From a virus, in the IMG/VR virus record IMGVR_UViG_3300049020_000015, positions 1 through 59,842 of that record: 59,842 nt of DNA; one strand, given 5' to 3'. The stretch's first letter is position 1. Every line of letters begins with the position of its first letter. The notes under the pieces are model-generated. The model made no database searches. It was not told the origin of the DNA and saw only the letters and a list, made by a program, of their open reading frames with translations. Made by a program: the position numbers and the translations under genes. This document shows positions 1 through 59,842 of the stretch, in pieces.

Positions 1-127
1 CGGTGAGTGGATTTTTCAGCTTTAAGACGGTTCTAACTCGCCCTGTGAAAGACCGAACGAAAGGCTTGTATTTGCCTGACTGACCATCTTTAATAATGTC
101 ATCCACTTTTTGTTCCGCTGCTGTCAT
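1..127. repeat. Terminal overlap identical to 59716-59842 (circularisation overlap)
   Basis: cggtgagtggatttttcagc...gttccgctgctgtcat is read at both ends. It carries the 5' end of minus-strand ORF 59408-59842. Confidence 0.95.
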
Positions 128-137
128 ACTCTTTCGC

Positions 138-392
138 CTACCCGGCGTGGGGTTGGTTAATTACAAATATCTCATCAATCGGGCATTCAAGGTGTTCACA
201 GAACAAGGCCAGCATATCGACAGTAATAGCCCATTTGCCGGCCTCGATCTTATTGATTGTTGCTGGGTCGATTGCCATAAGACGGCCCAATGCTGCTATT
301 GACAAGCCATTCGAGACACGCTTATTCTTCAACCAGTTGCCGACTATCAATCGGGCCTGCTGTAACTGTTCGGGTGCAATGTTGCCTTTCAT
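138..392 (-). CDS. XRE/Cro-CI family helix-turn-helix DNA-binding protein
   Basis: KRVSNGLSIAALGRLMAIDPATINKIEAGK matches the HTH_3 pattern. The ATG at 392 lies 1 nt after the TAA of the upstream gene; the track ORF extended to 512 would overlap its neighbour. Confidence 0.8.
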   Translation of the reverse strand: MKGNIAPEQLQQARLIVGNWLKNKRVSNGLSIAALGRLMAIDPATINKIEAGKWAITVDMLALFCEHLECPIDEIFVINQPHAG

Positions 393-393
393 A

Positions 394-918
394 TTATAGA
401 AGCCTCCAAACTCGCCTTGTTTTTTCGTCTTCCGCTTTTGTTCGGAATACCTTATCAGTAAAGTGATTAATTTGGTTTTGAACCGTCTGTCTGTCTTCGG
501 ATGGGTAAACAAAACTTTGACTTATTCCCAGCCTCGAAAGAAGCACCCGGTATTCTCCGCTTTTGCCCTTGTAATACGGCACCCCGTCTTCGATGGCATC
601 TAAGTTTGTAGGGGCCTGGTCAATCAGTTTTGCAATCTTTAGGTTGTGAACCTTATGTGCCACAGATCTTGCAGTTCGGCCTAACTTATCAGCCATTTCC
701 TGATATGTTAGGGATGTGCAATATTGTGCTATGAATAAAACCTCTTCTTTAGACCAATAATTTCTATCGCTTGTCAGTTTAAGATTTGATGCCTGCCATC
801 TTACAGAATCAACACTCCGTTCCAGTCTGTTAGCGAGTTCATCAATATCTGCTATGGAATAGTTCTCCTTCAGATATTGAATATCTTCATCTGTCCAATG
901 CTTATTATTCTTTTCCAT
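394..918 (-). CDS. DNA-binding protein with two Myb/SANT-like repeats
   Basis: Two repeats of the W-x2-E/D-E pattern: HWTDEDIQYLKENY... and YWSKEEVLFIAQY...LGRTARSVAHKVHNL. Confidence 0.6.
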   Translation of the reverse strand: MEKNNKHWTDEDIQYLKENYSIADIDELANRLERSVDSVRWQASNLKLTSDRNYWSKEEVLFIAQYCTSLTYQEMADKLGRTARSVAHKVHNLKIAKLIDQAPTNLDAIEDGVPYYKGKSGEYRVLLSRLGISQSFVYPSEDRQTVQNQINHFTDKVFRTKAEDEKTRRVWRLL

Positions 919-954
919 AAATAGAAATGAAAAATAGGGCCGAAGCCCCGATTG

Positions 955-1218
955 TTATTCTGCAATAATATAAATGTAGTCAACAGAGCCGGAATCAATA
1001 TATGATTCATAAACTCGTTTCCCTTCTTCGGTAAACAAGTGGTTTAATTTTGGTTCACCATCAAACTCGAAACAATCTTTGAAGAATTTACGAGCAATCG
1101 TTTCAGGAGCCTCGCCTTGTTTAGCAGTGAAAACGAACTCTTGATGTTTCAGGTCGGTTAATTTGGCGGGAGTTGAATTTGTAGTCATAATCTTTTCGCG
1201 GAGTTTATCGAGCTGCAC
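955..1218 (-). CDS. Hypothetical protein
   Basis: Co-oriented ORF in the leftward operon. The start at 1218 is GTG; an alternative ATG lies at 1188. Confidence 0.6.
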   Translation of the reverse strand: MQLDKLREKIMTTNSTPAKLTDLKHQEFVFTAKQGEAPETIARKFFKDCFEFDGEPKLNHLFTEEGKRVYESYIDSGSVDYIYIIAE

Positions 1219-1421
1219 CGCTCGTTTGATGAATCAAAGATAGCCAAAGGTTTTGAATCATGAAATATATTTCATTACTTAGAGCACTTCTTGACCACGA
1301 TCAATTCCGGTTTCCCGTAAATAATTCATTACAACTTGCAATACCTTTAATTCGATGATTTGATACCCGGCATGTCCGGGCTATAAAATAAGCGATAAAT
1401 TGCCTCTGTTTCTACAAGGGC

Positions 1422-1694
1422 TTATTCTGCACCTCCCTTCTTCTCCCGCTCCACCTGCTCAACCGCCATCAGTGCTAATTTCTTTGCATCATACTCTATC
1501 AACTCTGCTAACTTATACACTTCAGCTAATTGCCACAGCGACGGGTCTTTGATCATCTTCTTCATCCGGTTGTTGTTAGTGCCGTAATCGGTAGCTAGTA
1601 CAGTATAGGGAATCCAGGCGAATATATCTGTGAATTGTTTGATTGCTCCGGCCTTGAGCAATCCCTGGATAGTTTGGTAACGCGGGTCTTTCAT
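1422..1694 (-). CDS. Hypothetical small protein, divergent from integrase (excisionase/RDF candidate by position only)
   Basis: 90-aa ORF. It is the first gene of the leftward operon, across the attP-like spacer from int. Confidence 0.55.
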   Translation of the reverse strand: MKDPRYQTIQGLLKAGAIKQFTDIFAWIPYTVLATDYGTNNNRMKKMIKDPSLWQLAEVYKLAELIEYDAKKLALMAVEQVEREKKGGAE

Positions 1695-1719
1695 TTGGCG
1701 AAGGTCGGGAAAAGGGGAG

Positions 1720-1972
1720 AAAATATGATTATCGTATAAGGCATGTATGAGTACGAGTAATTAGGTATATAGAAATGCAATGATAATCAATTGCATATGA
1801 GGTATGATTCGCACCTGGTCGGGACCTCTACGGCACTTTTTCGAAACCCGCGCTAGTCGCGGGTTTTCTCATTAAATGCAGTACTGACGGGCTTTAGCTG
1901 AGAATGAGAAAGAAAATAAAGGAATAGAAAAGTATTTCAAAAAGCCTAAATTGTATGAGTAATGTATAAGTA
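1720..1972. other. attP-like region: repeated GTATGAGTA-type arm sites, inverted repeat, and a T-loop-like hairpin
   Basis: GTATGAGTA occurs at 1745-1753 and 1953-1961, with variants at 1801-1809 and 1964-1972. There is an inverted repeat ATGCAAT/ATTGCAT at 1775-1796. TTCGAAACCCGC at 1840-1851 sits inside the 1843-1867 hairpin. Confidence 0.45.
1843..1867. terminator. Strong hairpin (AAACCCGCG-ctagt-CGCGGGTTT) flanked by T/A runs; bidirectional terminator or att core
   Basis: 9-10 bp perfect stem with a 5-nt loop, TTTTT upstream and TTTT downstream. Confidence 0.5.
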
Positions 1973-3151
1973 ATGTTTAAATACTCAGTCAGCCTCATAC
2001 TCTACCGACCTGCCAACGCCAAAGGGCAATATCCGATTTATATTCGAATAACTATAAATCGTAAGCAGTCCTACATATCTACTGGTCATTTCATAGATCC
2101 CAAACTCTGGGACAAGAAAGCTGAACAAGTCCGGGCCGGTCACATGCAGGCCGCGGTAATTAACCCCGACATCACCACCCGCAAACAGACTATAATAAAA
2201 AGGATAGTTGACCACCAGGTAAAAGGCGAAAACATCACAGCATCGCATCTTAAGAACCTGGTAACTGCCAAAGCGGACTTACACAACATCTTTGAGTTTG
2301 TTGAAGCTTTTGCTGCCGAAGTGGAGCATAAACGCGAAGGCGGCACCCTGGACAACTACCGCAAGCATTTGAAGGTCCTGGAGCAATACCATGGTTCCCG
2401 GTCCCTGGCCTTTGAGGAAATTACCCATGACTACCTGGTTAAGTTTGAAAGCTACCTACGCAAACCGATTGCAGGGGTGCGCGAGGGTCTAGGAGGCAAC
2501 TACATTCATAATATCTGGAAGACAATCAAGACCTTTTTTAACGCCGCTCGTAAACGCGGGGTAACAACTTGTTACCCATTCTCAACCTACGAGAATCCAG
2601 AGTACGATGCACCTCACAAAGACTACCTGACACTTCAGGAGCTTGATCATCTTGAAGATGTACTGAGTAAGACCAGTAACAGCACCTTAAAGCAAACGCT
2701 TACTTACTTTCTGCTAGGATGTTACTCCGGCCTTCGCTTATCTGATTGGCAGCAATTCAACCACGACCAGCATGTAAAGGATGGCCGACTATACCTGCGT
2801 GCAAAAAAGAACGGTGAATGGGTGACAATGCCGGTTGTGGGACGGTTAGCTAATCACCTTGAGCACGTAAAAGCGCAGCCGCTAATTATCACAGAACAGG
2901 AAATAAACCGCACATTAAAGAACGTAGGCGGCATTAAAAAGAAGATAACAACACATACAGGTCGGCATACATTCGCCATTACTATGTGTGCTGATCAAGG
3001 AATTAGTGCCGAGACATGCAGCGAGTTGATGGGGATCACAATTAAGACCTGCGTTGAAAACTACTATAAAATAACCAACCGCAAGATTGATAAGGAATGT
3101 TTTGGGGCGTGGACTAAAAAAGCCACACGGCCAGGCGCCAAAGTACAATGA
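1973..3151 (+). CDS. int: Tyrosine recombinase / phage integrase with N-terminal arm-type DNA-binding domain
   Basis: C-terminal catalytic signature: GLRLSD ... HTGRHTFA ... ENYY (R, HxxR, Y). The N-terminus YPIYIRITINRKQSYISTG is typical of Bacteroidota-type integrases. Confidence 0.9.
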   Translation: MFKYSVSLILYRPANAKGQYPIYIRITINRKQSYISTGHFIDPKLWDKKAEQVRAGHMQAAVINPDITTRKQTIIKRIVDHQVKGENITASHLKNLVTAKADLHNIFEFVEAFAAEVEHKREGGTLDNYRKHLKVLEQYHGSRSLAFEEITHDYLVKFESYLRKPIAGVREGLGGNYIHNIWKTIKTFFNAARKRGVTTCYPFSTYENPEYDAPHKDYLTLQELDHLEDVLSKTSNSTLKQTLTYFLLGCYSGLRLSDWQQFNHDQHVKDGRLYLRAKKNGEWVTMPVVGRLANHLEHVKAQPLIITEQEINRTLKNVGGIKKKITTHTGRHTFAITMCADQGISAETCSELMGITIKTCVENYYKITNRKIDKECFGAWTKKATRPGAKVQ

Positions 3152-3199
3152 GCCCGGCAATAATAAGTCCTAAGATAATCTGGTCGCGGTAGTGGGGTT

Positions 3200-3403
3200 T
3201 CATACGTCCGCTACCCGGCTAATTACTTCAATATCATCCATGCTCACGCCCTGCTTTTCGGCGATCTTTGAAAGCAATTTCACTTGTGCTTCCAGTAGTC
3301 TATTACGTTTTGAAATTTGATGAGACCATTGGATGAAATAATATAAGGCGGCAACTGCGATAATGAAGCCGCCAGCGTAGAGGATGAATTGATCTGAGGT
3401 CAT
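3200..3403 (-). CDS. Small membrane protein (1 TM)
   Basis: Hydrophobic segment FILYAGGFIIAVAALYYFIQW. Lies in a co-oriented three-gene cluster. Confidence 0.6.
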   Translation of the reverse strand: MTSDQFILYAGGFIIAVAALYYFIQWSHQISKRNRLLEAQVKLLSKIAEKQGVSMDDIEVISRVADV

Positions 3404-3459
3404 GAGTTGGTGTTGAGGGTTAAAAAATGTGGGAAACTCAATGTAACTGTTTAGGTGGC

Positions 3460-3675
3460 TTACTTATCAAAATACTCCTGCAGTTCTTTCATTTCTTCTT
3501 CTGTCGCACCATTCTTTCGATAGATCTGAATCAATGTGTGAAGAATAAATTGCTGGTTCTTAACTAAGCTATCAGCTCGCATGGCGGCTCGAATAAGATA
3601 GAACCAAATCACCAGGCTAATAATGGCAGGAATTAATAAATCAGTGTACTCAATGGATGCAATCGTCTGTAACAT
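3460..3675 (-). CDS. Small membrane protein (1 TM)
   Basis: TM segment LLIPAIISLVIWFYLI. The ATG at 3675 lies 4 nt after the stop of the upstream gene; the track start at 3705 would overlap it. Confidence 0.6.
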   Translation of the reverse strand: MLQTIASIEYTDLLIPAIISLVIWFYLIRAAMRADSLVKNQQFILHTLIQIYRKNGATEEEMKELQEYFDK

Positions 3676-3679
3676 GTGG

Positions 3680-4117
3680 TTATTTTTTGTTAAATAATTT
3701 GTCAAGGTTCTTCTTAGTTAGAGTAAAGTAGTCACCTCCTGTCAACATAATATCGCAGTGCTTTATGCCCATAGTCCTTTGAGGCCTTAGAATCATTGCT
3801 TCGTCTCCCAAAACAATATCAGTTTTTTCGTTTTTAGAAATTGCATTATTGATATACTCGTAAAAAGCATTTAATACACCCCCTGTTTCTTTGAATTTAA
3901 ATGATCTTATATCTGTGGTATTGTATTTTAAATTATTGTAGGTAAGTATATATGTAGTATCAGAACCTGATAGCGTATATTCCAACTTTGCTATTAATAC
4001 ACCCACGCTTTTTATTTCTCCAATCTTTGTGACGTCAAGTGGTTTTAATTTTTCTATCTGTGCCATTAGTGAATTGCATATAAAGAACGCAATAAGCGAA
4101 AAGTAAAGCCTACTCAT
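3680..4117 (-). CDS. Secreted protein with N-terminal signal peptide
   Basis: MSRLYFSLIAFFICNSLMAQ signal-like N-terminus, followed by a beta-rich body. Confidence 0.65.
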   Translation of the reverse strand: MSRLYFSLIAFFICNSLMAQIEKLKPLDVTKIGEIKSVGVLIAKLEYTLSGSDTTYILTYNNLKYNTTDIRSFKFKETGGVLNAFYEYINNAISKNEKTDIVLGDEAMILRPQRTMGIKHCDIMLTGGDYFTLTKKNLDKLFNKK

Positions 4118-4423
4118 AAATGTTATAGTTATAACGTTAATATATGTTTACCCCTAAACCAACTGGGTATAATTGCGGAATAATGTTAAAATGTGATTAA
4201 GTGACCAACGGAACTTTTCTGAGTTCAAATATTTACTAAATTTATTATCCAATTGCACCCTACGGAATCCTAACCTTTTCCTCGATCATTAACCAAATTC
4301 CTGTTCATCCTTAAAGTACCGGCCATGTTATTAATTTCTCCAACGTAACATTGATTTCATTACTTTTGCGGCCTTCTTACCAGGTTAATATACCTGTACA
4401 AAATATTGGTCTTTAGTTTAACC

Positions 4424-4551
4424 AGCGATCGAACCTAGGAAATTCGTATTTAAGCACGGTTAACTACAGGGCGCCGATAAGGCGCAGCATGTAGTGACTG
4501 CTTAAGGGCTTCCTAGGGCCTGATCGCTTCACGAAGGCTGCGCCCTTTTTT
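4424..4551 (+). ncRNA. Candidate structured RNA: 105-nt rod-like multi-stem hairpin plus an alternative 8-bp terminator stem and T6
   Basis: Rod pairings: 4424-4430/4522-4528, 4434-4441/4510-4517, 4450-4456/4499-4505, 4463-4468/4490-4495, 4471-4475/4481-4485. Competing stem: 4481-4488/4537-4544, followed by TTTTTT at 4546-4551. Confidence 0.45.
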
Positions 4552-4621
4552 ATATCAGACACCAGAACTGCGTACTCAACATTTAATACTGCTACTGCCA
4601 TGAATAACTCATGCACTAAAT

Positions 4622-5200
4622 CTACTTGCCAGACTTGCCAACTTCGGCCTTGCCCGTTTTCTGCTGTTCCAACGCGCCTTTTAGAATACGCTTGCCCGAT
4701 TCTTTCGCAAGAGTGCCAGGAACATTGCCAACAAGTTGATCCAGCGCCTTCATTATCTCTTTATCGTGTTCATTTGAATTACGAACTATTGTGTCAAGAA
4801 CGGGCGGGATTTCCTTTAAACTAGCGACCATAGGTTTTAAAAGTTCATTTATTGTTTGCCTGGTTTCTGCCAGCGCTTCAAATAATTTATTTTTATCTGC
4901 TTTAGCCTCCTCGTGACTCTCCTCCAATTTGGCTATAAGCCTCTCAGCCATTGCGAGTTGGCCGGCTAGGTATGCCGGATCGTTTGGGTCGGCTACCATA
5001 TATCCACTTTTATTTGGAACTATATCTAAATTTCCATTTAGCCATTGTTCTAAAATAGCAGCATCTTCAGTCTTTGGATTGCCCTTTCCGTCAATCCATT
5101 TGTAAATACGATAAGAAGGAATGCCTGTTTCCTTAGACATTTTCAATACAGACTTTGATTCCTTTGAAAGTTTATCGTTAATCCTCTCAATTATTTGCAT
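4622..5200 (-). CDS. Putative immunity repressor-like protein (N-terminal HTH, coiled-coil C-terminus)
   Basis: SKETGIPSYRIYKWIDGKGNP is HTH-like. The gene is divergent from a Cro-like gene across a repeat-bearing spacer. No S24 peptidase motif was seen. Confidence 0.6.
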   Translation of the reverse strand: MQIIERINDKLSKESKSVLKMSKETGIPSYRIYKWIDGKGNPKTEDAAILEQWLNGNLDIVPNKSGYMVADPNDPAYLAGQLAMAERLIAKLEESHEEAKADKNKLFEALAETRQTINELLKPMVASLKEIPPVLDTIVRNSNEHDKEIMKALDQLVGNVPGTLAKESGKRILKGALEQQKTGKAEVGKSGK

Positions 5201-5308
5201 AAATTCTAAATTTCGACAAAAGGCTAAGATAAATTTGGATAAAGTTCCAAACGGCTTTACATTTGTTTCAACAAACGTTTCAACGAATATACTAAAACTG
5301 ATTATAGG
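5201..5308. promoter_or_regulatory. Divergent switch region with repeated GTTTCAAC operator-like sites
   Basis: GTTTCAAC occurs at 5265-5272 and 5277-5284 (12-bp phase), each the centre of a short inverted repeat (TTTGTTtcAACAAA; CGTTtcAACG). A related ATTTCGAC lies at 5210-5217. Confidence 0.5.
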
Positions 5309-5530
5309 ATGAAACTTTCAAAGAAGGCTATCAAGAAGATCGACAGACCAATGAGGCAAAAGCTAGCGATAGCGTTGGGGTTTAGCGAATACTGGGTAGG
5401 TCGTTTGGTGAAGAAGAACAAGTCAAACGGCCCCCTTGTTGCCCCGCCGGCGCTGTTAGTTCTCAGGCAAGAAACTGGATTGCAGGATGAGGATATACTT
5501 GAAGCTGCAGCAACTGTTACTACAAAGTAG
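5309..5530 (+). CDS. Cro-like small HTH regulator
   Basis: 73 aa, first rightward gene. RQKLAIALGFSEYWVGRLVKK is HTH-like. Confidence 0.6.
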   Translation: MKLSKKAIKKIDRPMRQKLAIALGFSEYWVGRLVKKNKSNGPLVAPPALLVLRQETGLQDEDILEAAATVTTK

Positions 5531-5592
5531 TCGCAAACCTTGCTAAAAAGTTTCATACGTCAAAGCCAAACCAACTCACTTAACAATATTTT

Positions 5593-5832
5593 ATGTCTGA
5601 CATCGAAAAAAAGATAGACCGCCTGTTACGTGAAGTGCAGAGTTTGAAGAAGGTGCAGAACAAGGAAACATGGGTAAGCTGTAGCTGGGTATCTGATGTG
5701 ACAGGATGGAATAAGAGTAAGCTACAGATGGCAAGGCAACAACATATTATTGAGTATAAAGAAAGCCCCGGCGGCGGCTACCTCTACAAGCTCGAATCCA
5801 TCCCCGAGCAGTTCATTAAAAAAGTTTCCTAA
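5593..5832 (+). CDS. Hypothetical protein
   Basis: 79-aa ORF in the rightward early array. Confidence 0.65.
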   Translation: MSDIEKKIDRLLREVQSLKKVQNKETWVSCSWVSDVTGWNKSKLQMARQQHIIEYKESPGGGYLYKLESIPEQFIKKVS

Positions 5833-5848
5833 CCATCAATACAATACC

Positions 5849-5926
5849 ATGAAAAAGTCTACACAAATTCTGATCGGCGCACTTGTTATTGCCGCCATCT
5901 ATTTTGTGAACTCATTATTTCAGTAA
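5849..5926 (+). CDS. Tiny membrane peptide (25 aa)
   Basis: Hand translation gives MKKSTQILIGALVIAAIYFVNSLFQ*. It fills an otherwise empty gap. Confidence 0.35.
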   Translation: MKKSTQILIGALVIAAIYFVNSLFQ

Positions 5927-5943
5927 CCGTAATAATCGTACCC

Positions 5944-6108
5944 ATGAAACAATTTCGCGTAACCCTTAAGTACATCATCAACGATCACACGCTCTCCTTA
6001 TCAACAGTGATACCGGCGTACAACGAAAACAGTGCTATAAGCAGATGCATCGAGGCGAATAATATAACGAGTGTGGTTGAGCAGAAAGCTGACGTTTTAA
6101 ATAACTAA
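5944..6108 (+). CDS. Hypothetical small protein (54 aa)
   Basis: Hand translation gives MKQFRVTLKYIINDHTLSL...VLNN*. It fills the gap before 6114. Confidence 0.45.
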   Translation: MKQFRVTLKYIINDHTLSLSTVIPAYNENSAISRCIEANNITSVVEQKADVLNN

Positions 6109-6113
6109 ACTAT

Positions 6114-6467
6114 ATGGAAACACAATTTACACCTGGCCCGTGGCATGTACATGATAACGTATCATACGAAAAGATACACGAGCGAAACATCGGCACATAT
6201 GATATTAAAACCACCCCGCCAGGCGCACTAGAAGATTCCATCTGGCTGGCAGACGTAAAGCCGTATGATGTGTCAGGGTTTACCAGTAAAGAGACGGCGT
6301 GCGCGAATGCTCACCTCATCGCCTCAGCCCCTGACATGTTCGAAGTGATTAAAGGATTGTACGAGTACAGTAAAAAGTCAGGTGTTAAATCCTATATGTA
6401 CGAAGAGATCGAGGCTGCTTACCTAAAAGCCACCGAGCAAGCTATTTCTCCTATAGAAAACCAGTAA
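6114..6467 (+). CDS. Hypothetical protein
   Basis: 117-aa ORF, co-oriented. Confidence 0.7.
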   Translation: METQFTPGPWHVHDNVSYEKIHERNIGTYDIKTTPPGALEDSIWLADVKPYDVSGFTSKETACANAHLIASAPDMFEVIKGLYEYSKKSGVKSYMYEEIEAAYLKATEQAISPIENQ

Positions 6468-6562
6468 CCCCCTACAAATGAAAGACCGAAAGACCGTACC
6501 CCTGACCGTTGAGCAGGCGTTGAGAGCTTGCGAAAGATTCACTAATCTTCAAACTCGTAAAG

Positions 6563-6820
6563 ATGAAAGTAATCTGCGTAAAACCAATAGATAATCCCAG
6601 CCCCAGCGCAATGAATAAGCCTCGGCCTAAAGTGGGAGATATAGACACTGTTGTTGACGAAGTGAAATATGATAGCATTGTTTATTATGAACTGGGAAGA
6701 TTCGGCTATGATATGTTATATGCCTCCAATTGCTTTTCAACCCTAAGCACCGATCTCGACGAAACCGCCCTCGTGACCGAAGAGTTTGAAGAAAAATATT
6801 GTGTACCGGTAAATCAGTAA
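6563..6820 (+). CDS. Hypothetical protein
   Basis: 85-aa ORF, co-oriented. Confidence 0.65.
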   Translation: MKVICVKPIDNPSPSAMNKPRPKVGDIDTVVDEVKYDSIVYYELGRFGYDMLYASNCFSTLSTDLDETALVTEEFEEKYCVPVNQ

Positions 6821-6822
6821 TC

Positions 6823-7086
6823 ATGTTAGCTACTGAACAGCAAATAAAGATGGCGGCGAAATTATACCAGTGTCGTGATGCGGCTAAGGCGTTGCATGGT
6901 GCCGAATATGAGACAGAACTTAAATGGTATATAGCACGGATATACGATTACCAGAAGAGTCAGAAAGTAGAAACATTACCTGCCGTATCAGCTATATGCA
7001 GCCGGCCAATAGTAAAAGAGAACCCAAGTGCTATAATGATGTTCATGGCAGCCGCTGTTGAGATTATTGAACCGTCAAAAGATTAA
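6823..7086 (+). CDS. Hypothetical protein
   Basis: The ATG at 6823 lies 2 nt after the upstream stop; the track start at 6799 would overlap it. Confidence 0.65.
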   Translation: MLATEQQIKMAAKLYQCRDAAKALHGAEYETELKWYIARIYDYQKSQKVETLPAVSAICSRPIVKENPSAIMMFMAAAVEIIEPSKD

Positions 7087-7089
7087 CAT

Positions 7090-7449
7090 ATGTACACATT
7101 CGAACAACTTAAAGACGACGTCCGCAAAGAGGCCGAAGCGCTGAAGATTCACGCGACGAAGGAGGAGAGGGAGAGGTTGGATATCGCCAATCTTAATGCA
7201 GTTGACCCTGAGAAATGTATATATGGTTTGCTTACTGGCGAATGCGATTCGGATCGAGCCGATGAATTAATTCAGGCATGTAATAAAATACTGCTACAAT
7301 ACGAGCCGTGCAGCGAAAATCTTATGGTGGTAGAAGGATTTAAGAAATGGAGATGGTCACCAATTGAGGTGTACATAGGAAAGGAAGAGTCCAACAACGC
7401 CTCACTAATCTCTTTCCTGCGCGGTGAGACTGAAACGTTAGAACTATGA
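7090..7449 (+). CDS. Hypothetical protein
   Basis: 119-aa ORF, tightly packed. Confidence 0.7.
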   Translation: MYTFEQLKDDVRKEAEALKIHATKEERERLDIANLNAVDPEKCIYGLLTGECDSDRADELIQACNKILLQYEPCSENLMVVEGFKKWRWSPIEVYIGKEESNNASLISFLRGETETLEL

Positions 7450-7703
7450 CGCCAAAAGTAAAAGCAAAGGAGCTTGTTAACGAAAAGTATTACCAGCCGT
7501 TAACGCTGCACCTGAACGTTAACAATAATAGTAAGGAGATGTGGGAATATGCAAAGCGGTGCGCATTAATAATGGTAGATGAAATATTGCCCAATACATG
7601 GAAGCTGACCACATATAAAAAGAGCTTTGGGTTTATAGATGTTGATCAGGGACTTACAACAGAGTATTGGGAAGATGTGAAAAAAGAAATTCAACAACTA
7701 TGA
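7446..7703 (+). CDS. Hypothetical protein
   Basis: ATGA start/stop overlap with the upstream gene. Confidence 0.7.
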   Translation: MTPKVKAKELVNEKYYQPLTLHLNVNNNSKEMWEYAKRCALIMVDEILPNTWKLTTYKKSFGFIDVDQGLTTEYWEDVKKEIQQL

Positions 7704-7918
7704 CAACCGCCATCGAACCCCATCCCGACCAGGTTAGCGACTACCACCGCCTCAAAGCCATCCGTCGCGGCTCCATGCAGGCAATAGAAGACAAGGCGAT
7801 TGCGGAGTATATGAGGTTGTTTGACGAGCAAGGGAGAGAGGCGGCAGAAAAAGAGTTTTTTAAACATTTTAATAAAGGCAAAGATGTCAGACAAGAAACT
7901 ATACTACAAGTACGATAA
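7700..7918 (+). CDS. Hypothetical protein
   Basis: ATGA overlap at 7700-7703 (MTTAIEPH...). Confidence 0.6.
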   Translation: MTTAIEPHPDQVSDYHRLKAIRRGSMQAIEDKAIAEYMRLFDEQGREAAEKEFFKHFNKGKDVRQETILQVR

Positions 7919-8081
7919 TGGTGATACGCCGATTATCTGTAAGCTGGATGATGTTAAGGATATGCTCGATGCTGAAGCCAGCGACTATAACGAGGAAACA
8001 AATAAAGCTGATGAACCACACTGGACTATCACTTTGGTGTTCCTGACTGATGAAGAATTTGCTAACCTGCCTGAAGCCTAA
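7884..8081 (+). CDS. Hypothetical acidic protein
   Basis: ATG at 7884 (MSDKKLYYKYDNGD...). It overlaps the upstream ORF by 35 nt, so the start is uncertain. Confidence 0.5.
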   Translation: MSDKKLYYKYDNGDTPIICKLDDVKDMLDAEASDYNEETNKADEPHWTITLVFLTDEEFANLPEA

Positions 8082-8085
8082 TCCC

Positions 8086-8376
8086 ATGATCACCCTCGAA
8101 TTCCAACTACACATCGACCCGTCACTCTACGGGTTCAAGTTCAAAGATGCCAACTATGCAACTGTAAAGTATGGCACCGAGAAAGTGGGCGATAACATCA
8201 TCGTTGCAGTCTCAGGCATCGAGTTAGGCCCGACGTTGTTAATCGCGATCACCGACCGGGAGAGACTAATAAGAGAGGCAGAGGCGGCAGCGAGAAATAA
8301 CGCAGAGGCGTATTGGGAGAACAGGCCAGCAGATGTAATGACAGGAATAATAAGCGGCTTTGCGCCTTATATATAA
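8086..8376 (+). CDS. Hypothetical protein
   Basis: ATG at 8086 after the upstream TAA. Followed by a terminator. Confidence 0.65.
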   Translation: MITLEFQLHIDPSLYGFKFKDANYATVKYGTEKVGDNIIVAVSGIELGPTLLIAITDRERLIREAEAAARNNAEAYWENRPADVMTGIISGFAPYI

Positions 8377-8389
8377 TTATCAGGACGGT

Positions 8390-8410
8390 GGGGCGCCCAT
8401 GGCCCCTTTT
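8390..8410 (+). terminator. Rho-independent terminator
   Basis: GGGGC-gcccatg-GCCCC followed by TTTT. Confidence 0.7.
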
Positions 8411-8574
8411 ATTAAGCTCTTTCAAATTTCTAATACTACAAGGACGTGCGCGTAATGGCGGCTCCCCCTTGTCCGTAGGCTTGACCTACGGGGGATAACT
8501 GGAAGTCTTTGTTTAGTAATGTTATTCCGAAGTACAACAAAGCGGGTTTGCTTCTTTACTGTGACAAAAGGAAG

Positions 8575-8760
8575 ATGATAGCCGGAAATAAACCGGCCCC
8601 TAACGGGAATAGAAGTTCTTTTAAGATACGTATTGATTGTTACAGCCGGTTACGTGACGCTGCCGGATTAAAGTCTGATAAGCGGGGAATAAAGTCATCC
8701 GAAGACAACATCAATACAATTTTATTAATGGCGCTTCATGGTAGCAAGAGTGCTAAGTAA
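8575..8760 (+). CDS. Possible ribbon-helix-helix-like small protein (61 aa)
   Basis: SFKIRIDCYSRLRDAAGL...EDNINTILLMAL fits a strand-helix-helix pattern. It is an isolated ORF in otherwise non-coding DNA and could be spurious. Confidence 0.35.
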   Translation: MIAGNKPAPNGNRSSFKIRIDCYSRLRDAAGLKSDKRGIKSSEDNINTILLMALHGSKSAK

Positions 8761-8930
8761 GGTGGCAACTGAAAACAGCACGATGACGGCGAGAGTAAGC
8801 AGCTACGGTAGCGGAAACCTGGTTCACGTATAAAGGTGACAGATGTTAGCCAATTGGACGATCCGCGCCTTACGCCAACACACTAATAGAGGTACGCCCC
8901 TAAGCCGCTCCGGGTAAGTGAGCGGCAAAC

Positions 8931-9078
8931 GCAAGTGTAGCAGAATTGGTAAACGCAGCGGGCGACATGCCCGGCTAAAAAAAGGCGCGAAAACAGGATG
9001 TGGAAGTCTGACGATAGTGCCATAAAAATGATTGCGCTTCCAACGTGATCATTGAGGGTTCGAATCCCTTCGCTTGCA
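8931..9078 (+). tRNA. Non-canonical (split) tRNA-Gly(UCC)-like element: 5' acceptor and D-arm at 8931-8957, a 74-nt insert, then anticodon arm to 3' end at 9032-9078
   Basis: 3' part: TTGCG-CTTCCAA-CGTGA, TCATT, GAGGG-TTCGAAT-CCCTT, CGCTTGC-A. The 5' strand GCAAGTG (7/7 pairs, one G-U) is followed by TA and GCAGAATTGGTAAACGC. Confidence 0.5.
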
Positions 9079-9096
9079 CGAAAAACATTCTACCCA

Positions 9097-9411
9097 ATGG
9101 AACTTATATTCTGGACGTCAGTTGGACTGTCCATTGTAGCAGTGATCAGCGTAGTGATACTAATTATTAAATTCTATAACCCTAACCCTTTACGTATGAT
9201 ACCTGGAATACTCGCCTTTGTTTTTTTCGCGCTGTTTGTGATTCTGATTCGCATTGTCCGTAACATTTTCCGGCCCGAGAGGAGAGAGGCGCGGCGTATA
9301 AAAAGGGCGCAAGGCAGAGCAAAGATTATCGACGTAAAAGATATATCAGGCTATGAATATGATCACTCATTCAGTGAACAGCCGTATAACCCTTATGAAT
9401 TGTATAACTGA
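9097..9411 (+). CDS. Membrane protein (2 TM) with charged C-terminal tail
   Basis: ATG at 9097 (MELIFWTSVGLSIVAVISVVILII...GILAFVFFALFVILI...RRIKRAQGR). The track start at 9052 would lie inside the tRNA-like T-arm. Confidence 0.65.
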   Translation: MELIFWTSVGLSIVAVISVVILIIKFYNPNPLRMIPGILAFVFFALFVILIRIVRNIFRPERREARRIKRAQGRAKIIDVKDISGYEYDHSFSEQPYNPYELYN

Positions 9412-9515
9412 TGACGGCCATCGCTGAGATAATTGAGACGTTGAAGTGGTTATTGCTGGCGGCTTATGGCTCGGTTAAGATCTGGAAGTATTGTATTAGG
9501 AGTAAACGATATTAA
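9411..9515 (+). CDS. Small hydrophobic peptide (34 aa)
   Basis: TGATG overlap with the upstream gene. Hand translation gives MTAIAEIIETLKWLLLAAYGSVKIWKYCIRSKRY*. Confidence 0.35.
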   Translation: MTAIAEIIETLKWLLLAAYGSVKIWKYCIRSKRY

Positions 9516-13514: not shown

Positions 13515-14126
13515 ATGGAACATTGGAAACAAATTGAATTTGGGAATGGCAAATATTCTGTTTCAGATTCAGGTAACGTAAAAAACAATATTACAGGCAA
13601 ATTACTAAGCTCTCAAATACAAAACTCTGGGTATCGCTTAGTTCACTTGCACGATAACGGAAAAAGAAAAGCCTCGACAATACATCGCCTTGTTGCATTG
13701 GCTTTCATAGATAACCCTGAATTAAAAACAATGGTGGATCATATTGATTGCAATAAGTTGAATAACCATGTTTCCAATTTAAGGTGGGTTACCGCTTGTG
13801 AAAATGGTAAATACGCTGTAGAGAATGGGCTATTTAAAAACGCTGCATTAAAAGCTAAGGACAGAATGAAGAAGATTGGGCGAGCATTTTCTAAAGCGAA
13901 TGGCGAAAGACTAATTGCAATGAACGCTAAAAAAAGAAAACCAGTGCTTCAGTTATCGTTGAAGGGCGAATTTATTAAAGAGTGGCCATCGGTTAGGGCA
14001 ATACGAAATGCTAATATCGCACATAATGTAGGGAAAGTATTAAAAGGAATATATGAGCAGTCGGGCGGGTATAAGTGGATATTCAAGGAGCCCGACCCAC
14101 ATCAAAAATTAACGATGGATTTATAG
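13515..14126 (+). CDS. HNH homing endonuclease (NUMOD4 + HNH_3 type)
   Basis: WKQIEFGNGKYSVSDSGNVKN (NUMOD4) and VDHIDCNKLNNHVSNLRWVTACEN (HNH). Confidence 0.85.
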   Translation: MEHWKQIEFGNGKYSVSDSGNVKNNITGKLLSSQIQNSGYRLVHLHDNGKRKASTIHRLVALAFIDNPELKTMVDHIDCNKLNNHVSNLRWVTACENGKYAVENGLFKNAALKAKDRMKKIGRAFSKANGERLIAMNAKKRKPVLQLSLKGEFIKEWPSVRAIRNANIAHNVGKVLKGIYEQSGGYKWIFKEPDPHQKLTMDL

Positions 14127-28925: not shown

Positions 28926-29578
28926 CCATCTGTTATTCATTTGCCAGCCGGTCAAGGCCGGAGCGATTCTTTGAGACACTCGATAATGTGCGCACTATGA
29001 GCGCCAGTGATGATTATTTCGTAGTGGCTAAGCTGGACACCGACGACCTAATGATGTACAATGATAACGTAAGATGTCGCATCGAACAGGCTCAGACCCC
29101 TATCATTTCAAGGTGGGGTACCAGTCAAAGTAAGATACACGCAATTAATAGATCATTAGATAACTTACCCCACTGGGACATTCTTGTCTGCCTCAGTGAT
29201 GATATGCGCTTTCGTACTCACGGATTCGACAACCTTATCCGTCAACACATGCCGGCCGATCTTGACGGGTTTGTTCATTTAATGGATGATTACGCTAAAG
29301 ACCGGGTATGCACGGTGAGTATATTGGGCCGCAAGTATTATGAACGCGATGGGTACATATATCACCCTGACTATTATTCGATGTGGTGCGATGATGAAGC
29401 GCAAGCTGTTGCCCAGCTGAGAGGTAAATATATTTTAGTGCCTGGTACTCATATTGAGCATCTACATTATACAAATAATGCAAAGGCAAAAAAAGATGAA
29501 TTGTATTGGAGAAACGATACTTATAATAAGGATAAAGAAGTGTTTTTAAAACGACAATTGCTAAACTTTGACTTATGA
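28922..29578 (+). CDS. GT-A fold glycosyltransferase-like protein
   Basis: ATGA overlap at 28922. MTICYSFASRSRPERF...VCLSDDMRF (DxD-like). Confidence 0.55.
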   Translation: MTICYSFASRSRPERFFETLDNVRTMSASDDYFVVAKLDTDDLMMYNDNVRCRIEQAQTPIISRWGTSQSKIHAINRSLDNLPHWDILVCLSDDMRFRTHGFDNLIRQHMPADLDGFVHLMDDYAKDRVCTVSILGRKYYERDGYIYHPDYYSMWCDDEAQAVAQLRGKYILVPGTHIEHLHYTNNAKAKKDELYWRNDTYNKDKEVFLKRQLLNFDL

Positions 29579-30126
29579 GTGACGAAAAGTGGAAGGCTAT
29601 CCCAAACACCAATGGCGCGTATGAAGTAAGCAACTATGGTCGGCTCAGGTCATATTTAGGGCAGGGCGCCAGAAAAAAATCTAAAGAGCCTGTAATGCTT
29701 AGCATAACAATAAACGGGAACGGCTACCCAGCAAAGCATATAAGAGGAGTTAATTTACGCATCCACCGACTTGTAGCGGAGGCGTTTATTCCTAACCCTT
29801 CAGGGTTACCTATGGTTAACCACATTGACGGCGATAAAACAAATAACCATATATCTAACCTTGAATGGTGCGATAAGAGTCATAATGAACGCCATGCTGA
29901 ACGAATGGGGCTTAAGAATAAGGCAAGGGGAGAAGGCTGTAATAAGTCGCAATTGACCGATGCGGATGTTATGGAAATATATAAATCAAACTTAGGGACC
30001 AGAGAATTGGGGCGTCAATACGGTGTCAATCACTCCGCAATATCGAATATAAAAACAGGCAGAACCTGGAATCACATAACAGGTGCGCCAATTGTACCTA
30101 ATAAGCGAAATGTATCATTCAAATGA
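29575..30126 (+). CDS. HNH homing endonuclease (NUMOD4 + HNH_3 + C-terminal HTH)
   Basis: WKAIPNTNGAYEVSNYGRLRS and VNHIDGDKTNNHISNLEWCDKSHN. ATGA overlaps at both ends. Confidence 0.85.
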   Translation: MSDEKWKAIPNTNGAYEVSNYGRLRSYLGQGARKKSKEPVMLSITINGNGYPAKHIRGVNLRIHRLVAEAFIPNPSGLPMVNHIDGDKTNNHISNLEWCDKSHNERHAERMGLKNKARGEGCNKSQLTDADVMEIYKSNLGTRELGRQYGVNHSAISNIKTGRTWNHITGAPIVPNKRNVSFK

Positions 30127-30855: not shown

Positions 30856-31700
30856 ACGCGATCGCATATTCATTATTCGGTTACAACCAACAACATGAAA
30901 ATTGTTACGACTTCCGGGCATACCTACGTGGTCTACATCTTAATATTCGCATTGCAGAACTGCTTTATCCAGGGTGGTCTATTTGCGTGGCAATAGACCA
31001 ATCGGTGCATTATTCGCCATATAGGGAATACTTCACCAACCTGGCATTGGATAAAAGATTAGATGTTTATCTACAGGCTACCCGCCCTTTGTGCGAAATG
31101 ATGCTGTATCGGTTGTTGCCTATGTTCATGATCGAGGATGATAAAAACAAATACGACCGCATTATCTGCCGCGACACTGACAGCTTGTTATCCTACCGCG
31201 AACGACAAGCAGTTTCCTATTGGGAACGAGGCCCCAAGATGGCACACGCAATTACCGACAGCGTAAGCCATAACATAACCCTTATGGGCGGTATGATCGG
31301 GTTCCAGTCCGGCCCCTTCCGCGCACGCATGGGCGTTAAGTCATTCGACGAACTACTATCACTCAGCCAGGGTATTGACTTTAATAACAAGGGCGCCGAT
31401 CAGGATTTCCTGAACCGGTACGTATTGCCCAAGGTAGCCGACAGCATCACCGAGCATTTCGTTCTTGGGCACCCTCAGACGTTCAGGGGCGATTGCCACA
31501 ACTTCATACACGATATTGACCTGAAAGAAATAGGGGTCCCTGATGAGCTTAAGGAGACCAACGGGTATGGCTTTCATGTTGGTGCCAGTGGCATGCAAAC
31601 TGATGCGGTGGTAAAGTTCCTGCAGAAGCATGGCAAGGATAATGAGTATTGGGAGGGGATCGAGAAACAATATCCATCTATATTTTATTGGATGCTATGA
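30852..31700 (+). CDS. Putative glycosyltransferase-like protein (DxD motif)
   Basis: 282 aa; IICRDTDSLLSY is DxD-like. The call rests on context within the GT cluster. Confidence 0.4.
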   Translation: MNAIAYSLFGYNQQHENCYDFRAYLRGLHLNIRIAELLYPGWSICVAIDQSVHYSPYREYFTNLALDKRLDVYLQATRPLCEMMLYRLLPMFMIEDDKNKYDRIICRDTDSLLSYRERQAVSYWERGPKMAHAITDSVSHNITLMGGMIGFQSGPFRARMGVKSFDELLSLSQGIDFNNKGADQDFLNRYVLPKVADSITEHFVLGHPQTFRGDCHNFIHDIDLKEIGVPDELKETNGYGFHVGASGMQTDAVVKFLQKHGKDNEYWEGIEKQYPSIFYWML

Positions 31701-32437
31701 TCAAAGGAATTTATAAAATTACATCACCCACCGGGAAGGTATACATTGGGCAAAGCATTGATATTGAAAAGCGCTTTAGAATATATAAACGCGTTAAACC
31801 ATGCTTTGCTCAAAAAACATTATACCAATCCCTTATGAAGCACGGTGTGGGCGCTCATAGTTTTGACGTGTTGCATCAATTGCCAAACGATGTAGACGAC
31901 GATATACTGAACGTTTATGAAATATTGTATATAGCCCAACACAAATCCTGTGGGATAAAAATGCTGAACATGTCAAATGGAGGTCGTGGACGCGCATGTT
32001 CAGTTTCAGAGGAAACGAAGAAGAAGATAAGCCAAGCCCATAAGGGTAAAGTTGTTTCAGAAGAATCAAGGATTAGAATGAGCAATGCTCAAAAAGGCGG
32101 GAAAAGGTCAGAGGCACATAAGGCGGCATTGAGCTGGAAGGGGCGTAAGCATAAAGAGGAAACAAAGAGAAAAATAGGAGCTAAGTCAAAGCTTAGATCA
32201 GGCGAACTGAATTGTAATTATGGCAAGAAACGATCAGAGGAAACAAAACAAAAGCAGAGCGAGGCGCTAAAAGGGAAATACGTTGGGGAGAAAGCCGCTA
32301 ATTTCGGAACAAAGCACAAACCGGAAAGCCTTCAAAAGATGCAACAAACTCATTTAAAAAAATGGTCTGATCCAGAGTATAAGGCGAAAATGAGACAAGC
32401 AGCCATTGACAGATGGAAGCGACAAAAAGAAAAATAA
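31697..32437 (+). CDS. GIY-YIG homing endonuclease with NUMOD3 repeats
   Basis: GIYKITSPTGKVYIGQS...KRFRIYK, then repeated EETKKKISQAHKGK-type NUMOD3 units. ATGA overlap at 31697. Confidence 0.85.
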   Translation: MIKGIYKITSPTGKVYIGQSIDIEKRFRIYKRVKPCFAQKTLYQSLMKHGVGAHSFDVLHQLPNDVDDDILNVYEILYIAQHKSCGIKMLNMSNGGRGRACSVSEETKKKISQAHKGKVVSEESRIRMSNAQKGGKRSEAHKAALSWKGRKHKEETKRKIGAKSKLRSGELNCNYGKKRSEETKQKQSEALKGKYVGEKAANFGTKHKPESLQKMQQTHLKKWSDPEYKAKMRQAAIDRWKRQKEK

Positions 32438-59407: not shown

Positions 59408-59842
59408 TTATACACCAAATCTACGCGCCCCCATTTCAACAAGTTCAACCATGGTCTTAAAGTCGGTTTCAACGATGGTTCCAGGCTTCGGTTTCTCTTT
59501 TAGCTGTAAGAAAAACCTTTCCTTAACAACATCTTCAAAAACTGTCATATCAAACTCGTTATCGTTCTTTAACCCCAACAGCCTATTTGATATTATCATG
59601 TCGTTTACCCATAGCTTCAAGGCAGTTTGCAAATCCTTTAACCAACTAAGTTCACCATGAAGTTCAGGGTTTACAATATCAATGAGACTTTCAATGTAAT
59701 CAACTAGTATTGAGCCGGTGAGTGGATTTTTCAGCTTTAAGACGGTTCTAACTCGCCCTGTGAAAGACCGAACGAAAGGCTTGTATTTGCCTGACTGACC
59801 ATCTTTAATAATGTCATCCACTTTTTGTTCCGCTGCTGTCAT
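59408..59842 (-). CDS. Hypothetical protein (144 aa) immediately downstream of the XRE gene across the circular junction
   Basis: Complete ORF. Its ATG is at 59842, equivalent to position 127, and is 10 nt downstream of the stop of 138-392 on the circle. Confidence 0.7.
   Translation of the reverse strand: MTAAEQKVDDIIKDGQSGKYKPFVRSFTGRVRTVLKLKNPLTGSILVDYIESLIDIVNPELHGELSWLKDLQTALKLWVNDMIISNRLLGLKNDNEFDMTVFEDVVKERFFLQLKEKPKPGTIVETDFKTMVELVEMGARRFGV
59716..59842. repeat. Terminal overlap identical to 1-127
   Basis: Direct comparison of both ends. Confidence 0.95.

Follow-up and report, generated by a model that had tools for sequence, protein, structure and literature searches.

A conserved 148-nucleotide tRNA-like element in a temperate phage genome as a candidate tRNA-scaffolded RNA gene, and its oversized leucine-type relatives in other phages

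The stretch of DNA considered here (the window) is IMG/VR virus record IMGVR_UViG_3300049020_000015, 59,842 nucleotides (nt) long, which is the genome of a temperate phage. On its plus strand, positions 8931 to 9078 hold a tRNA-like element of 148 nt, flanked by a conserved hairpin on its 5' side and by the first gene of a replication and recombination block on its 3' side, in a phage with no other tRNA. Our preferred reading, which we hold with about as much confidence as doubt, is that the element is a conserved gene for a tRNA-derived RNA, an "expanded tRNA frame" that scaffolds a central payload. By analogy, it would most likely be a tRNA-scaffolded stable RNA comparable to the species 1 RNA of phage T4. 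The element has a definite anatomy, is conserved in a diverged phage, occupies a slot whose contents differ between relatives and resembles a broad class of phage loci. Its parts are as follows.

8931-9078, plus strand: tRNA-like element, 148 nt
8931-8937, plus strand: 5' strand of the acceptor stem, GCAAGUG, pairing 7/7 (one G-U) with 9071-9077; the same in locus L017
8938-8956, plus strand: U8 and A9, then a leucine-type class II D arm, GCA-GAAUUGGUAAA-CGC
8957-8976, plus strand: central hairpin 1, 7 base pairs (bp) with one bulge and a GACAU loop, from the minimum-energy fold
8984-9021, plus strand: central hairpin 2, stem GGCGC/GUGCC with a 28-nt loop, from the minimum-energy fold
9027-9053, plus strand: central hairpin 3, 10-bp stem AAUGAUUGCG/CGUGAUCAUU with the 7-nt loop CUUCCAA (9037-9043), from the minimum-energy fold
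9054-9070, plus strand: T arm, GAGGG-UUCGAAU-CCCUU, aligned to the T arm of the Rfam tRNA model
9071-9078, plus strand: 3' strand of the acceptor stem, CGCUUGC, and discriminator A73

Unconstrained minimum-energy folding of 8925-9085 yields the acceptor stem (8931-8937 with 9071-9077), the T arm and the three central hairpins. The 7-bp acceptor stem is contiguous with the 5-bp T stem, which closes a T-psi-C-type loop, as in a canonical tRNA. The D stem has 3 bp including one A-C mismatch, with G18 and G19 in place. A preliminary description of this DNA, made without database searches, had listed the acceptor strands, the T arm, the CTTCCAA loop, a CGGGC-GACAT-GCCCG hairpin, a run of A and a D-loop-like AATTGGTAAA, and all of these were found in place. 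Between the D arm and the T arm lie 97 nt, where 22 to 40 nt or so are usual, and these fold into three hairpins. The 5-bp stem and 7-nt loop of a canonical anticodon arm do not begin at position 27. Hairpin 1 begins precisely where the anticodon arm is expected and has a 5-nt loop; the canonical 7-nt loop is found on another hairpin, 70 nt 3' of it. The latter, hairpin 3, directly adjoins the T arm and corresponds to what had been described as an anticodon arm plus variable loop. The bases of that "variable loop", UCAUU, are wholly paired with the last five bases of the supposed insert, which produces the 10-bp stem. The loop of hairpin 2 holds UGGAAG (9001-9006), Watson-Crick complementary to CUUCCA (9037-9042) in the loop of hairpin 3 (rough chance probability, 0.03), so that a kissing contact amounting to an intramolecular "codon-anticodon" pairing is possible. 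No loop-loop complementarity was found in the other oversized elements described below; only the element of the window and L017 has one. CCA is not encoded after the element in the window and is encoded in L017.

Standard detectors do not recognize this structure as a gene. ARAGORN calls no tRNA on the native sequence, that is, no canonical cloverleaf of 70 to 95 nt, and the Rfam tRNA model (RF00005) aligns to 9011-9078 alone at 20.1 bits, against a threshold of 29 bits. ARAGORN run in tmRNA mode (-m) was negative on both the native and the in silico spliced sequence, and Rfam gave no match to transfer-messenger RNA (tmRNA). The Y RNA-like family YrlA (RF02553), whose tRNA-like module lies inside a terminal Ro-binding stem, gave no match at an E value of 10 or less, and the termini of the element form an acceptor stem instead.

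The frame of the element is of leucine type. Its 5' part, GTAGCAGAATTGGTAAACGC, is identical at 17 of 20 bases to the class II consensus GTGGCGGAATTGGTAGACGC of 85 oversized frames listed from other viral contigs. The exact D-arm signature GGCGGAAYTGGTAGACGC of those frames is absent; the window has AGCAGAATTGGTAAACGC in its place, which differs by three substitutions and owes its A-C mismatch to one of them. The AAtTGGTAAAC loop of the D arm recurs in the slot elements of L021, L020 and L105. The last 28 nt of the element are identical to the tRNA-Leu(taa) of L001, an otherwise unrelated viral contig; that gene was the sole match in viral contigs to an exact 25-mer covering the T arm and acceptor strand. 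The identity of tRNA-Leu in Escherichia coli resides in A73 and the D/T-loop corner, with no use made of the anticodon or variable arm, and the discriminator of bacterial tRNA-Gly is U73 (PMC9976931). The element carries A73 instead of U73, and the G1-C72 pair, C35 and C36 of a tRNA-Gly(UCC) are present only if an intron is assumed. The preliminary description had proposed a split tRNA-Gly(UCC): a genuine tRNA-derived element with both halves is indeed there, and the glycine identity is contradicted by A73 and by the leucine-type frame. With 7/7 acceptor pairs, 17 of 20 bases in the D arm, 5/5 T-stem pairs, A73, a length of 148 nt and no ARAGORN call, the element is a diverged member of the oversized leucine-type frames.

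Pairing of the acceptor strands alone proves little, since a 7/7 complement is expected within 200 nt of upstream sequence 21% of the time. The strand at 8931-8937 had been described as the only such complement, which is not the case: with G-U pairs allowed, those at 8914, 8918 and 8958 also qualify. Judged by its sequence, the element as a whole is far beyond chance, because 17 of 20 bases of the D arm match, the 3' 28 nt equal those of a tRNA-Leu(taa) in L001 and all 148 nt are kept in L017.

Locus L017 carries the same element with six differences, although its membrane protein is only 49% identical to that of the window. Three of the differences are in unpaired positions. The other three are in stems and all leave the bases paired: A-U to G-U and G-U to A-U in hairpin 3, and G-U to G-C in the T arm. 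Hairpin 1 is unchanged, and hairpin 2 has a single substitution, within its loop. The exact element is known in two distinct sequences only, one from the window (identical in L009 and L011) and one from L017. An independent type of element, found in L018 and L114, shows five differences between those two loci, none of which breaks a predicted pair. The central domain is 95 to 97% identical between diverged phages in both types. Random placement of the substitutions would spare all pairs with a probability of 0.19 for L017 and 0.22 for L018/L114 (joint probability, 0.04). The sparing of pairs is suggestive but not conclusive.

The position of the element is itself informative. Two conserved features bound an exchangeable cassette slot.

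8899-8927, plus strand: upstream hairpin CCTAAGCC-GCTC-CGGGTAAGT-GAGC-GGCA, present in one copy in the genome; 5' edge of the slot
9097-9411, plus strand: gene for a small membrane protein of 104 amino acids, starting 18 nt after the element; 3' edge of the slot

Relatives with the slot were traced through exact and near homologs of the membrane protein in other contigs. A tRNA or tRNA-like element lies 5' of each of its homologs P0001 to P0006, and among the slot relatives the beginning of the gene is conserved at the DNA level. These relatives also have in common an upstream hairpin of the general form CCTAAGCC-stem-CGGGTAAGN-stem-GGCA. This pattern has 27 matches in viral contigs and 9 in genomes, mostly from Chitinophagaceae and other Bacteroidota. 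At the variable stem positions, 17 of the 20 distinct variants are fully paired, with at least nine different stem sequences; the hairpin is strongly covarying. Rfam contains no family that matches it. The hairpin occurs in phages and prophages, namely in L004, L017, L018, L020-L048, L102-L109, L111-L113 and L117, just 5' of the first gene of the recombination/replication block, be it the membrane protein, a PD-(D/E)XK nuclease, a Sak4-like ATPase or a RecT-like protein, and is often followed by TTTTAA.

The contents of the slot differ widely. Ordinary tRNA genes are found in L021 (tRNA-Ser(tga)), L004 (tRNA-Thr(tgt)) and L117 (tRNA-Arg(tcg)), and the slot is empty in L036, L046 and L104. Oversized elements that ARAGORN misses occupy it or lie in prophages: one of 145 nt in L018 (identical in L019 and L084) with its ortholog in L114-116, and others in L020 (102 nt), L111 (113 nt), L110 (116 nt) and L105 (2789-2912, 124 nt, in a prophage of Chitinophaga sp. 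Hz27, NZ_JBHKFJ010000006.1). Unconstrained minimum-energy folds of L018/L114, L020, L105, L110 and L111 give an acceptor stem, a D arm and a T arm. The Rfam tRNA model accepts L105, L020 and L107 at 38 to 42 bits, and Infernal places their extra sequence in the anticodon loop, the variable region or both. The centre of the L018/L114 element holds a degenerate copy of the loop motif of the upstream hairpin. In L008, similarity to the window (98%) begins exactly at 9077, which marks a mosaic breakpoint. Upstream of it lie an HNH_3/AP2 homing-endonuclease gene (1649-2101) and, directly 3' of that, an odd 76-nt tRNA-Arg(acg) (2116-2191) without an Rfam tRNA match. This pair of genes fills the slot in the closest relatives, L008 and L016/L013. 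A search of metagenomes with CGGGTAAG-N-GGCA-N100-130-GGTTCRANTCC, which omits the CCTAAGCC half of the hairpin, returned 52 loci; nearly all are chance matches 5' of ordinary tRNAs, and only L084 (identical to L018) is relevant.

Oversized frames of this kind are not confined to the slot. A scan for sequences that combine a T arm, a D arm containing GG and 7/7 acceptor pairs, with frames longer than 95 nt counted as oversized, found 60 frames of canonical length and 15 oversized frames in 860 kb of loci. Controls gave 0.5 oversized frames per shuffle and 2 when the upstream sequence was reversed. Frames newly seen in this way include those at L104 4543-4678, L112 1949-2066, L107 and L004 3252-3357. 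The strict pattern GGCGGAAYTGGTAGACGC-N60-90-GGTTCRA, run on IMG/VR viral contigs, gave at least 118 matches (L118-L237). Among the matches listed, 105 of 118 have at least 6/7 acceptor pairs and at least 4/5 T-stem pairs, and there are at least 85 unique oversized frames of 100 to 138 nt. The following counts refer to these 85 listed frames. A73 is present in 65, a canonical tRNA is absent from 52 of the loci, and native ARAGORN calls none. The best single deletion in each produces scattered "anticodons", with leucine in 13. The centres have no common sequence motif and vary in architecture. The acceptor AGTCAGG/CCTGACT is common to many of the frames, with unrelated centres. When 20 frames were sampled, the Rfam tRNA model accepted 9 of them at 31 to 41 bits, while canonical tRNAs at the same loci scored 45 to 69.

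Two cultured phages carry unannotated oversized leucine-type frames as well: Bacillus phage SPP1 (about 110 nt; NC_004166.2, ~6646-6755, or L239, ~395-504) and Leuconostoc phage Ln-9 (126 nt; NC_027358.1, ~146-271, or L240, ~396-521). In each, the 7-bp acceptor stem pairs perfectly, the D arm reads GGCGGAATAGGTAGACGC and the T loop reads TGCAAAT; neither frame matches Rfam. The SPP1 frame overlaps a doubtful "gene 10", for which the record flags a conflict with the conceptual translation, and is followed by a second, minihelix-like T arm and a terminator. In L215 (4435-4570) and L199 (571-699, minus strand), genes resembling tRNA-Leu(UAA) have a hairpin insert of 44 to 52 nt beside or inside a CUUAAAA anticodon loop. 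The insert of L199 is at about U34/A35, the site of the cyanobacterial group I intron, and is far too short for an intron of that type. A literature search that covered few subscription journals turned up no account of oversized leucine-type frames in phage genomes, so that novelty is unproven.

Of known RNAs, those from the T4 tRNA region appear closest. This region encodes two stable RNAs of unknown role, rnaC and rnaD (PMC3014915, PMC9697503). Like these (119 to 139 nt), the element is phage encoded and found at the location of tRNA genes. T4 rnaC (L238 1501-1639; 139 nt) has close to its 3' end a T arm, CCGGG-UUCGAAU-CCCGG, and after it part of an acceptor strand. In both rnaC and the element, a canonical T arm near the 3' end accompanies a large non-tRNA interior. 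Unlike the element, rnaC has no recognizable D arm and only about 5/7 acceptor pairs. By eye, the unaligned sequences show no resemblance, and homology is not claimed; neither rnaC nor rnaD matches an Rfam family at an E value of 1 or less. The T4 RNAs also belong to a phage of E. coli and lie within a tRNA array, whereas the element is the sole tRNA-like gene of its genome.

Several other systems share parts of this design. With class II tRNA-Leu, the element has in common the D arm GGCGGAAUUGGUAGACGC (17 of 20 bases), A73 and a 7/5 acceptor/T branch, and tRNAs of that class normally have additional sequence separating the anticodon arm from the T arm. Unlike class II tRNA-Leu, its centre measures 97 nt rather than about 33, there is no leucine anticodon, and a 5-nt loop stands at the position of the anticodon arm. 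Ponchon and Dardel reportedly engineered a "tRNA scaffold" in which recombinant RNA replaces the anticodon arm. There too the acceptor/D/T frame is kept around an arbitrary middle RNA, which the cell then processes and stabilizes, and L020 and L111 have exactly this topology, with an anticodon-like stem closing the insert. Unlike the man-made scaffold, the payload of the window is natural and conserved and forms three separate hairpins instead of one arm. A tmRNA likewise keeps the acceptor stem, T arm and an analogue of the D loop while a large domain replaces the anticodon arm; the element differs from it in lacking a tag reading frame, pseudoknots and G3-U70 and in its length (148 nt versus about 350 nt). 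Archaeal noncanonical introns and split tRNAs also interrupt the tRNA body outside the anticodon loop and become detectable after in silico removal. However, archaeal tRNA introns need a bulge-helix-bulge motif and a splicing endonuclease, neither of which was found here (the enzyme among 30 phage proteins scanned), and the host lineage is bacterial, as relatives and genomes bearing the upstream hairpin are Bacteroidota.

If the element is an expanded tRNA frame, its RNA would be cotranscribed with the early rightward operon and fold into an L-shaped frame. The 5' end would be cut by RNase P and the 3' end by RNase Z or exonucleases, together with the CCA-adding enzyme, all supplied by the host. 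Excision would yield a stable small RNA and leave the downstream mRNA with a short, defined leader. The frame would thus act as a natural tRNA scaffold that stabilizes and processes the payload, the central domain, which differs nearly completely between phages. Leucylation of the frame may be possible, as it has A73, G18 G19 and the D-loop/T-loop corner, the features that E. coli leucyl-tRNA synthetase (LeuRS) requires whatever the anticodon; ordinary decoding by the UCC-like loop is unlikely. We regard as possible, though doubtful, the broader proposal that the element belongs to a large unannotated class of phage RNAs in which a conserved leucine-type frame carries a hypervariable payload of 60 to 100 nt in place of the anticodon and variable arms. 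In such a class, spanning phages of Bacteroidota, uncultured contigs, SPP1 and Ln-9, the frame would recruit tRNA-processing enzymes, and perhaps LeuRS, while the payload would act in trans as a decoy, a guide or a protein-binding RNA in conflicts between phage and host. The T4 species 1 and 2 RNAs would be an example.

Codon usage or evasion of the host's anticodon nucleases is the usual explanation for tRNA genes in phages. Widespread nondecoding tRNA-shaped RNAs would, if real, provide a self-processing, nuclease-resistant carrier for small functional RNAs. The element adds to the tRNA-like stable RNAs of phages and exposes widespread putative RNA genes that standard tools overlook. Current annotation of phages, that of the model phage SPP1 included, does not show the oversized frames, because ARAGORN calls none of the 85 listed and Rfam takes about half of those sampled, at low scores. 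They also offer a comparative handle on a loose end of 50 years, namely what the species 1 and 2 RNAs of T4 do. Moreover, the exchangeable cassette slot beside a strongly covarying hairpin is now defined and could be tested genetically in phages of Chitinophagaceae.

A number of observations weigh against an RNA gene of this kind. The region does not fold more stably than shuffled sequence (z = -0.36 for 8761-9098 and -1.95 for 8925-9085), and central hairpins 1 and 2 derive from energy folding alone. The weak D stem with its A-C mismatch and the subthreshold Rfam score point in the same direction, and the two distinct sequences of the exact element provide weak covariation support. When the phage genome was searched for antisense targets of the central domain, the longest match was 10 nt, which is the chance level. 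A pure scaffold model does not explain the CUUCCAA loop, with its U33, C35, C36 and A37, which is kept in L017. Finally, the slot tRNA of L016/L013 has a destroyed T arm (CAAGG to CCTGA); together with the contents of L008, this indicates that slot cassettes turn over and decay.

The loop just mentioned is the main attraction of a different explanation, a functional tRNA-Gly(UCC) from which an intron of 72 to 74 nt is spliced by an unfamiliar route, or in which it is tolerated, and which decodes GGA and GGG. ARAGORN with default settings, negative on the native sequence, reports a tRNA-Gly(tcc) with a score of 115.0 once 8958-9031 is deleted (117.5 in L017). The G1-C72 and G10-C25 pairs are then present, the loop and its arm are retained in L017 with changes that preserve pairs, real tRNAs occupy the slot of relatives, and L215, L199 and L020 resemble tRNA-Leu(UAA) genes whose anticodon loop has an insert in it or next to it. 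When every internal segment of 8 to 105 nt was deleted and the product scored with ARAGORN, however, two parses tied. The tRNA-Gly(tcc) form, from deletions of about 72 to 74 nt, stands beside a 95-nt class II form scoring 116.5, in which hairpin 1 serves as anticodon arm and the 10-bp hairpin as variable arm. The rival parse, and the Infernal placement of the extra sequence of L105, L107 and L020, leave the discrete 74-nt insert at position 26/27 that had been described unsupported. The pairing of the "variable loop" with the insert also speaks against the intron reading. Shuffling the 97-nt centre with the frame kept allowed 12 of 200 trials to reach a score of at least 115 by some single deletion, which means that the "anticodon arm" adds little beyond the frame and that the intron reading barely exceeds chance. 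The A73 and leucine-type frame also argue against a tRNA-Gly, as do the random-looking postdeletion anticodons of the 85 listed relatives. Nor is there a sign of splicing. The interruption of 74 nt lies outside the anticodon loop, where group I introns are in the loop and at least roughly 200 nt long, and neither Intron_gpI nor another ribozyme matches in Rfam at an E value of 10 or less, in agreement with the earlier remark that the insert fits no known bacterial or phage intron type. Neither junction, the one at the foot of hairpin 1 or the one within the 10-bp stem, shows a bulge-helix-bulge motif. Among the 30 phage proteins scanned, no RNA ligase, RtcB, CCA-adding, splicing-endonuclease or synthetase domain was found. 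Removal of the insert by splicing thus finds no backing, and given the tied parse, the shuffle scores and the lack of any intron or splicing signature we rank this reading low, as rather improbable; the conserved CUUCCAA loop keeps it alive.

The remaining alternatives dispense with a function for the central domain. The element could be a purely cis-acting processing signal ("tRNA punctuation"), in which a frame recognized by RNases P and Z matters and the centre is neutral, drifted filler. Its place within an operon, 18 nt 5' of a start codon, would suit this role, as would a slot that in relatives takes any tRNA or none. The irregularities cluster in the anticodon/variable region and leave the acceptor, T arm and D loop intact, and the centres are hypervariable without a common motif. 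We nonetheless think this unlikely: the centre is nearly identical between diverged phages with no pair broken in two independent element types, filler under no selection should become shorter rather than reach 60 to 100 nt again and again in more than 100 phage contigs, and a cursory look at context suggests that most oversized frames elsewhere stand alone and not between obviously cotranscribed genes. Another alternative is a decaying tRNA pseudogene. A former leucine-type phage tRNA that gained insertions and lost its function would account for the negative ARAGORN result, the subthreshold Rfam score and the weak D stem, and such a fate would match the destroyed T arm in L016/L013 and the rapid turnover of cassettes even between near-identical phages (L017 versus L117). 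A pseudogene would not be expected to have perfect 7-bp acceptor and T stems, which are retained in 105 of the 118 listed matches, or to spare predicted pairs in all 11 differences of two ortholog pairs, or to persist beside so diverged a neighbouring protein, and we consider it improbable. The preliminary description had also raised the possibility of a secondary attachment or decoy site, and a further alternative is thus a phage attachment site (attP), or such a secondary or decoy site, derived from the 3' terminus of a tRNA gene of the host. The phage is temperate, with an integrase at 1973-3151, and 9032-9078 does resemble the 3' two-thirds of a tRNA. Yet the element includes the 5' acceptor strand and the D arm, 5.8 kb separate it from the integrase, and the exact 32-mer of loop and T arm occurs in 0 of 185,579 species-representative genomes (exact matches, representatives only). 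Relatives carry complete, different tRNAs in the same slot, and the flanks are shared recombination-prone sequences rather than integrase arm sites; we find the attachment-site explanation barely credible and have rejected it. Among the possibilities raised beforehand, that of a tRNA-like domain of a larger RNA, which the expanded-frame reading resembles, comes closest to the evidence.

The window is a circular assembly, as bases 1-127 recur at 59716-59842, which gives a genome of about 59.7 kb with nearly all genes on the plus strand. Besides the integrase, it codes for a primase/helicase, a portal protein, a major capsid protein, a terminase and a Gp3-like recombination directionality factor. 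Further features outside the slot are as follows.

1973-3151: tyrosine integrase
5234-5265, plus strand: Bacteroidota sigma-A-type promoter TTTG-N-TAnnTTTG, the sole consensus match on the plus strand
13515-14126, 29575-30126 and 31649-32437: three free-standing homing-endonuclease genes, two HNH_3 with NUMOD4 and one GIY-YIG with NUMOD3

The host is probably a member of the Bacteroidota, perhaps Chitinophagaceae-like. The primase/helicase is about 34% identical to counterparts in phages of Riemerella, Tenacibaculum, Cellulophaga and Flavobacterium. The promoter at 5234-5265, which fits such a host, lies at the divergent junction between leftward genes and the head of the rightward early operon; no consensus Bacteroidota promoter was found immediately 5' of the 148-nt element, and this one is the nearest. 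The three homing-endonuclease genes are consistent with strong mosaicism near the slot. ARAGORN detects no tRNA or tmRNA in the whole window, and an Rfam scan at gathering thresholds gave no match; E-value scans of 1-9500 gave nothing beyond the subthreshold tRNA match. The region 8700-9300 had no DNA similarity to GenBank phages, PLSDB plasmids or E. coli genomes.

Conservation at the DNA level also extends upstream of the slot. In the 340 nt 5' of the hairpin, otherwise different phages share blocks corresponding to 8390-8425, 8592-8626 and 8729-8806 of the window. These include a terminator-like GC hairpin with TTTTATTAAGCTCTTTCAAAT and the sequence ACCGGCCCCTAACGGGAATAGAAGTTCTTTTAAG, also present in L017, L020, L114 and L117; the third block comprises 78 nt common to the window and L020. 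An open reading frame at 8509-8760 overlaps the conserved blocks and has no PHROG match, and for these reasons it is probably not coding. There may be a longer structured leader, of which the tRNA-like RNA would form the 3' part.

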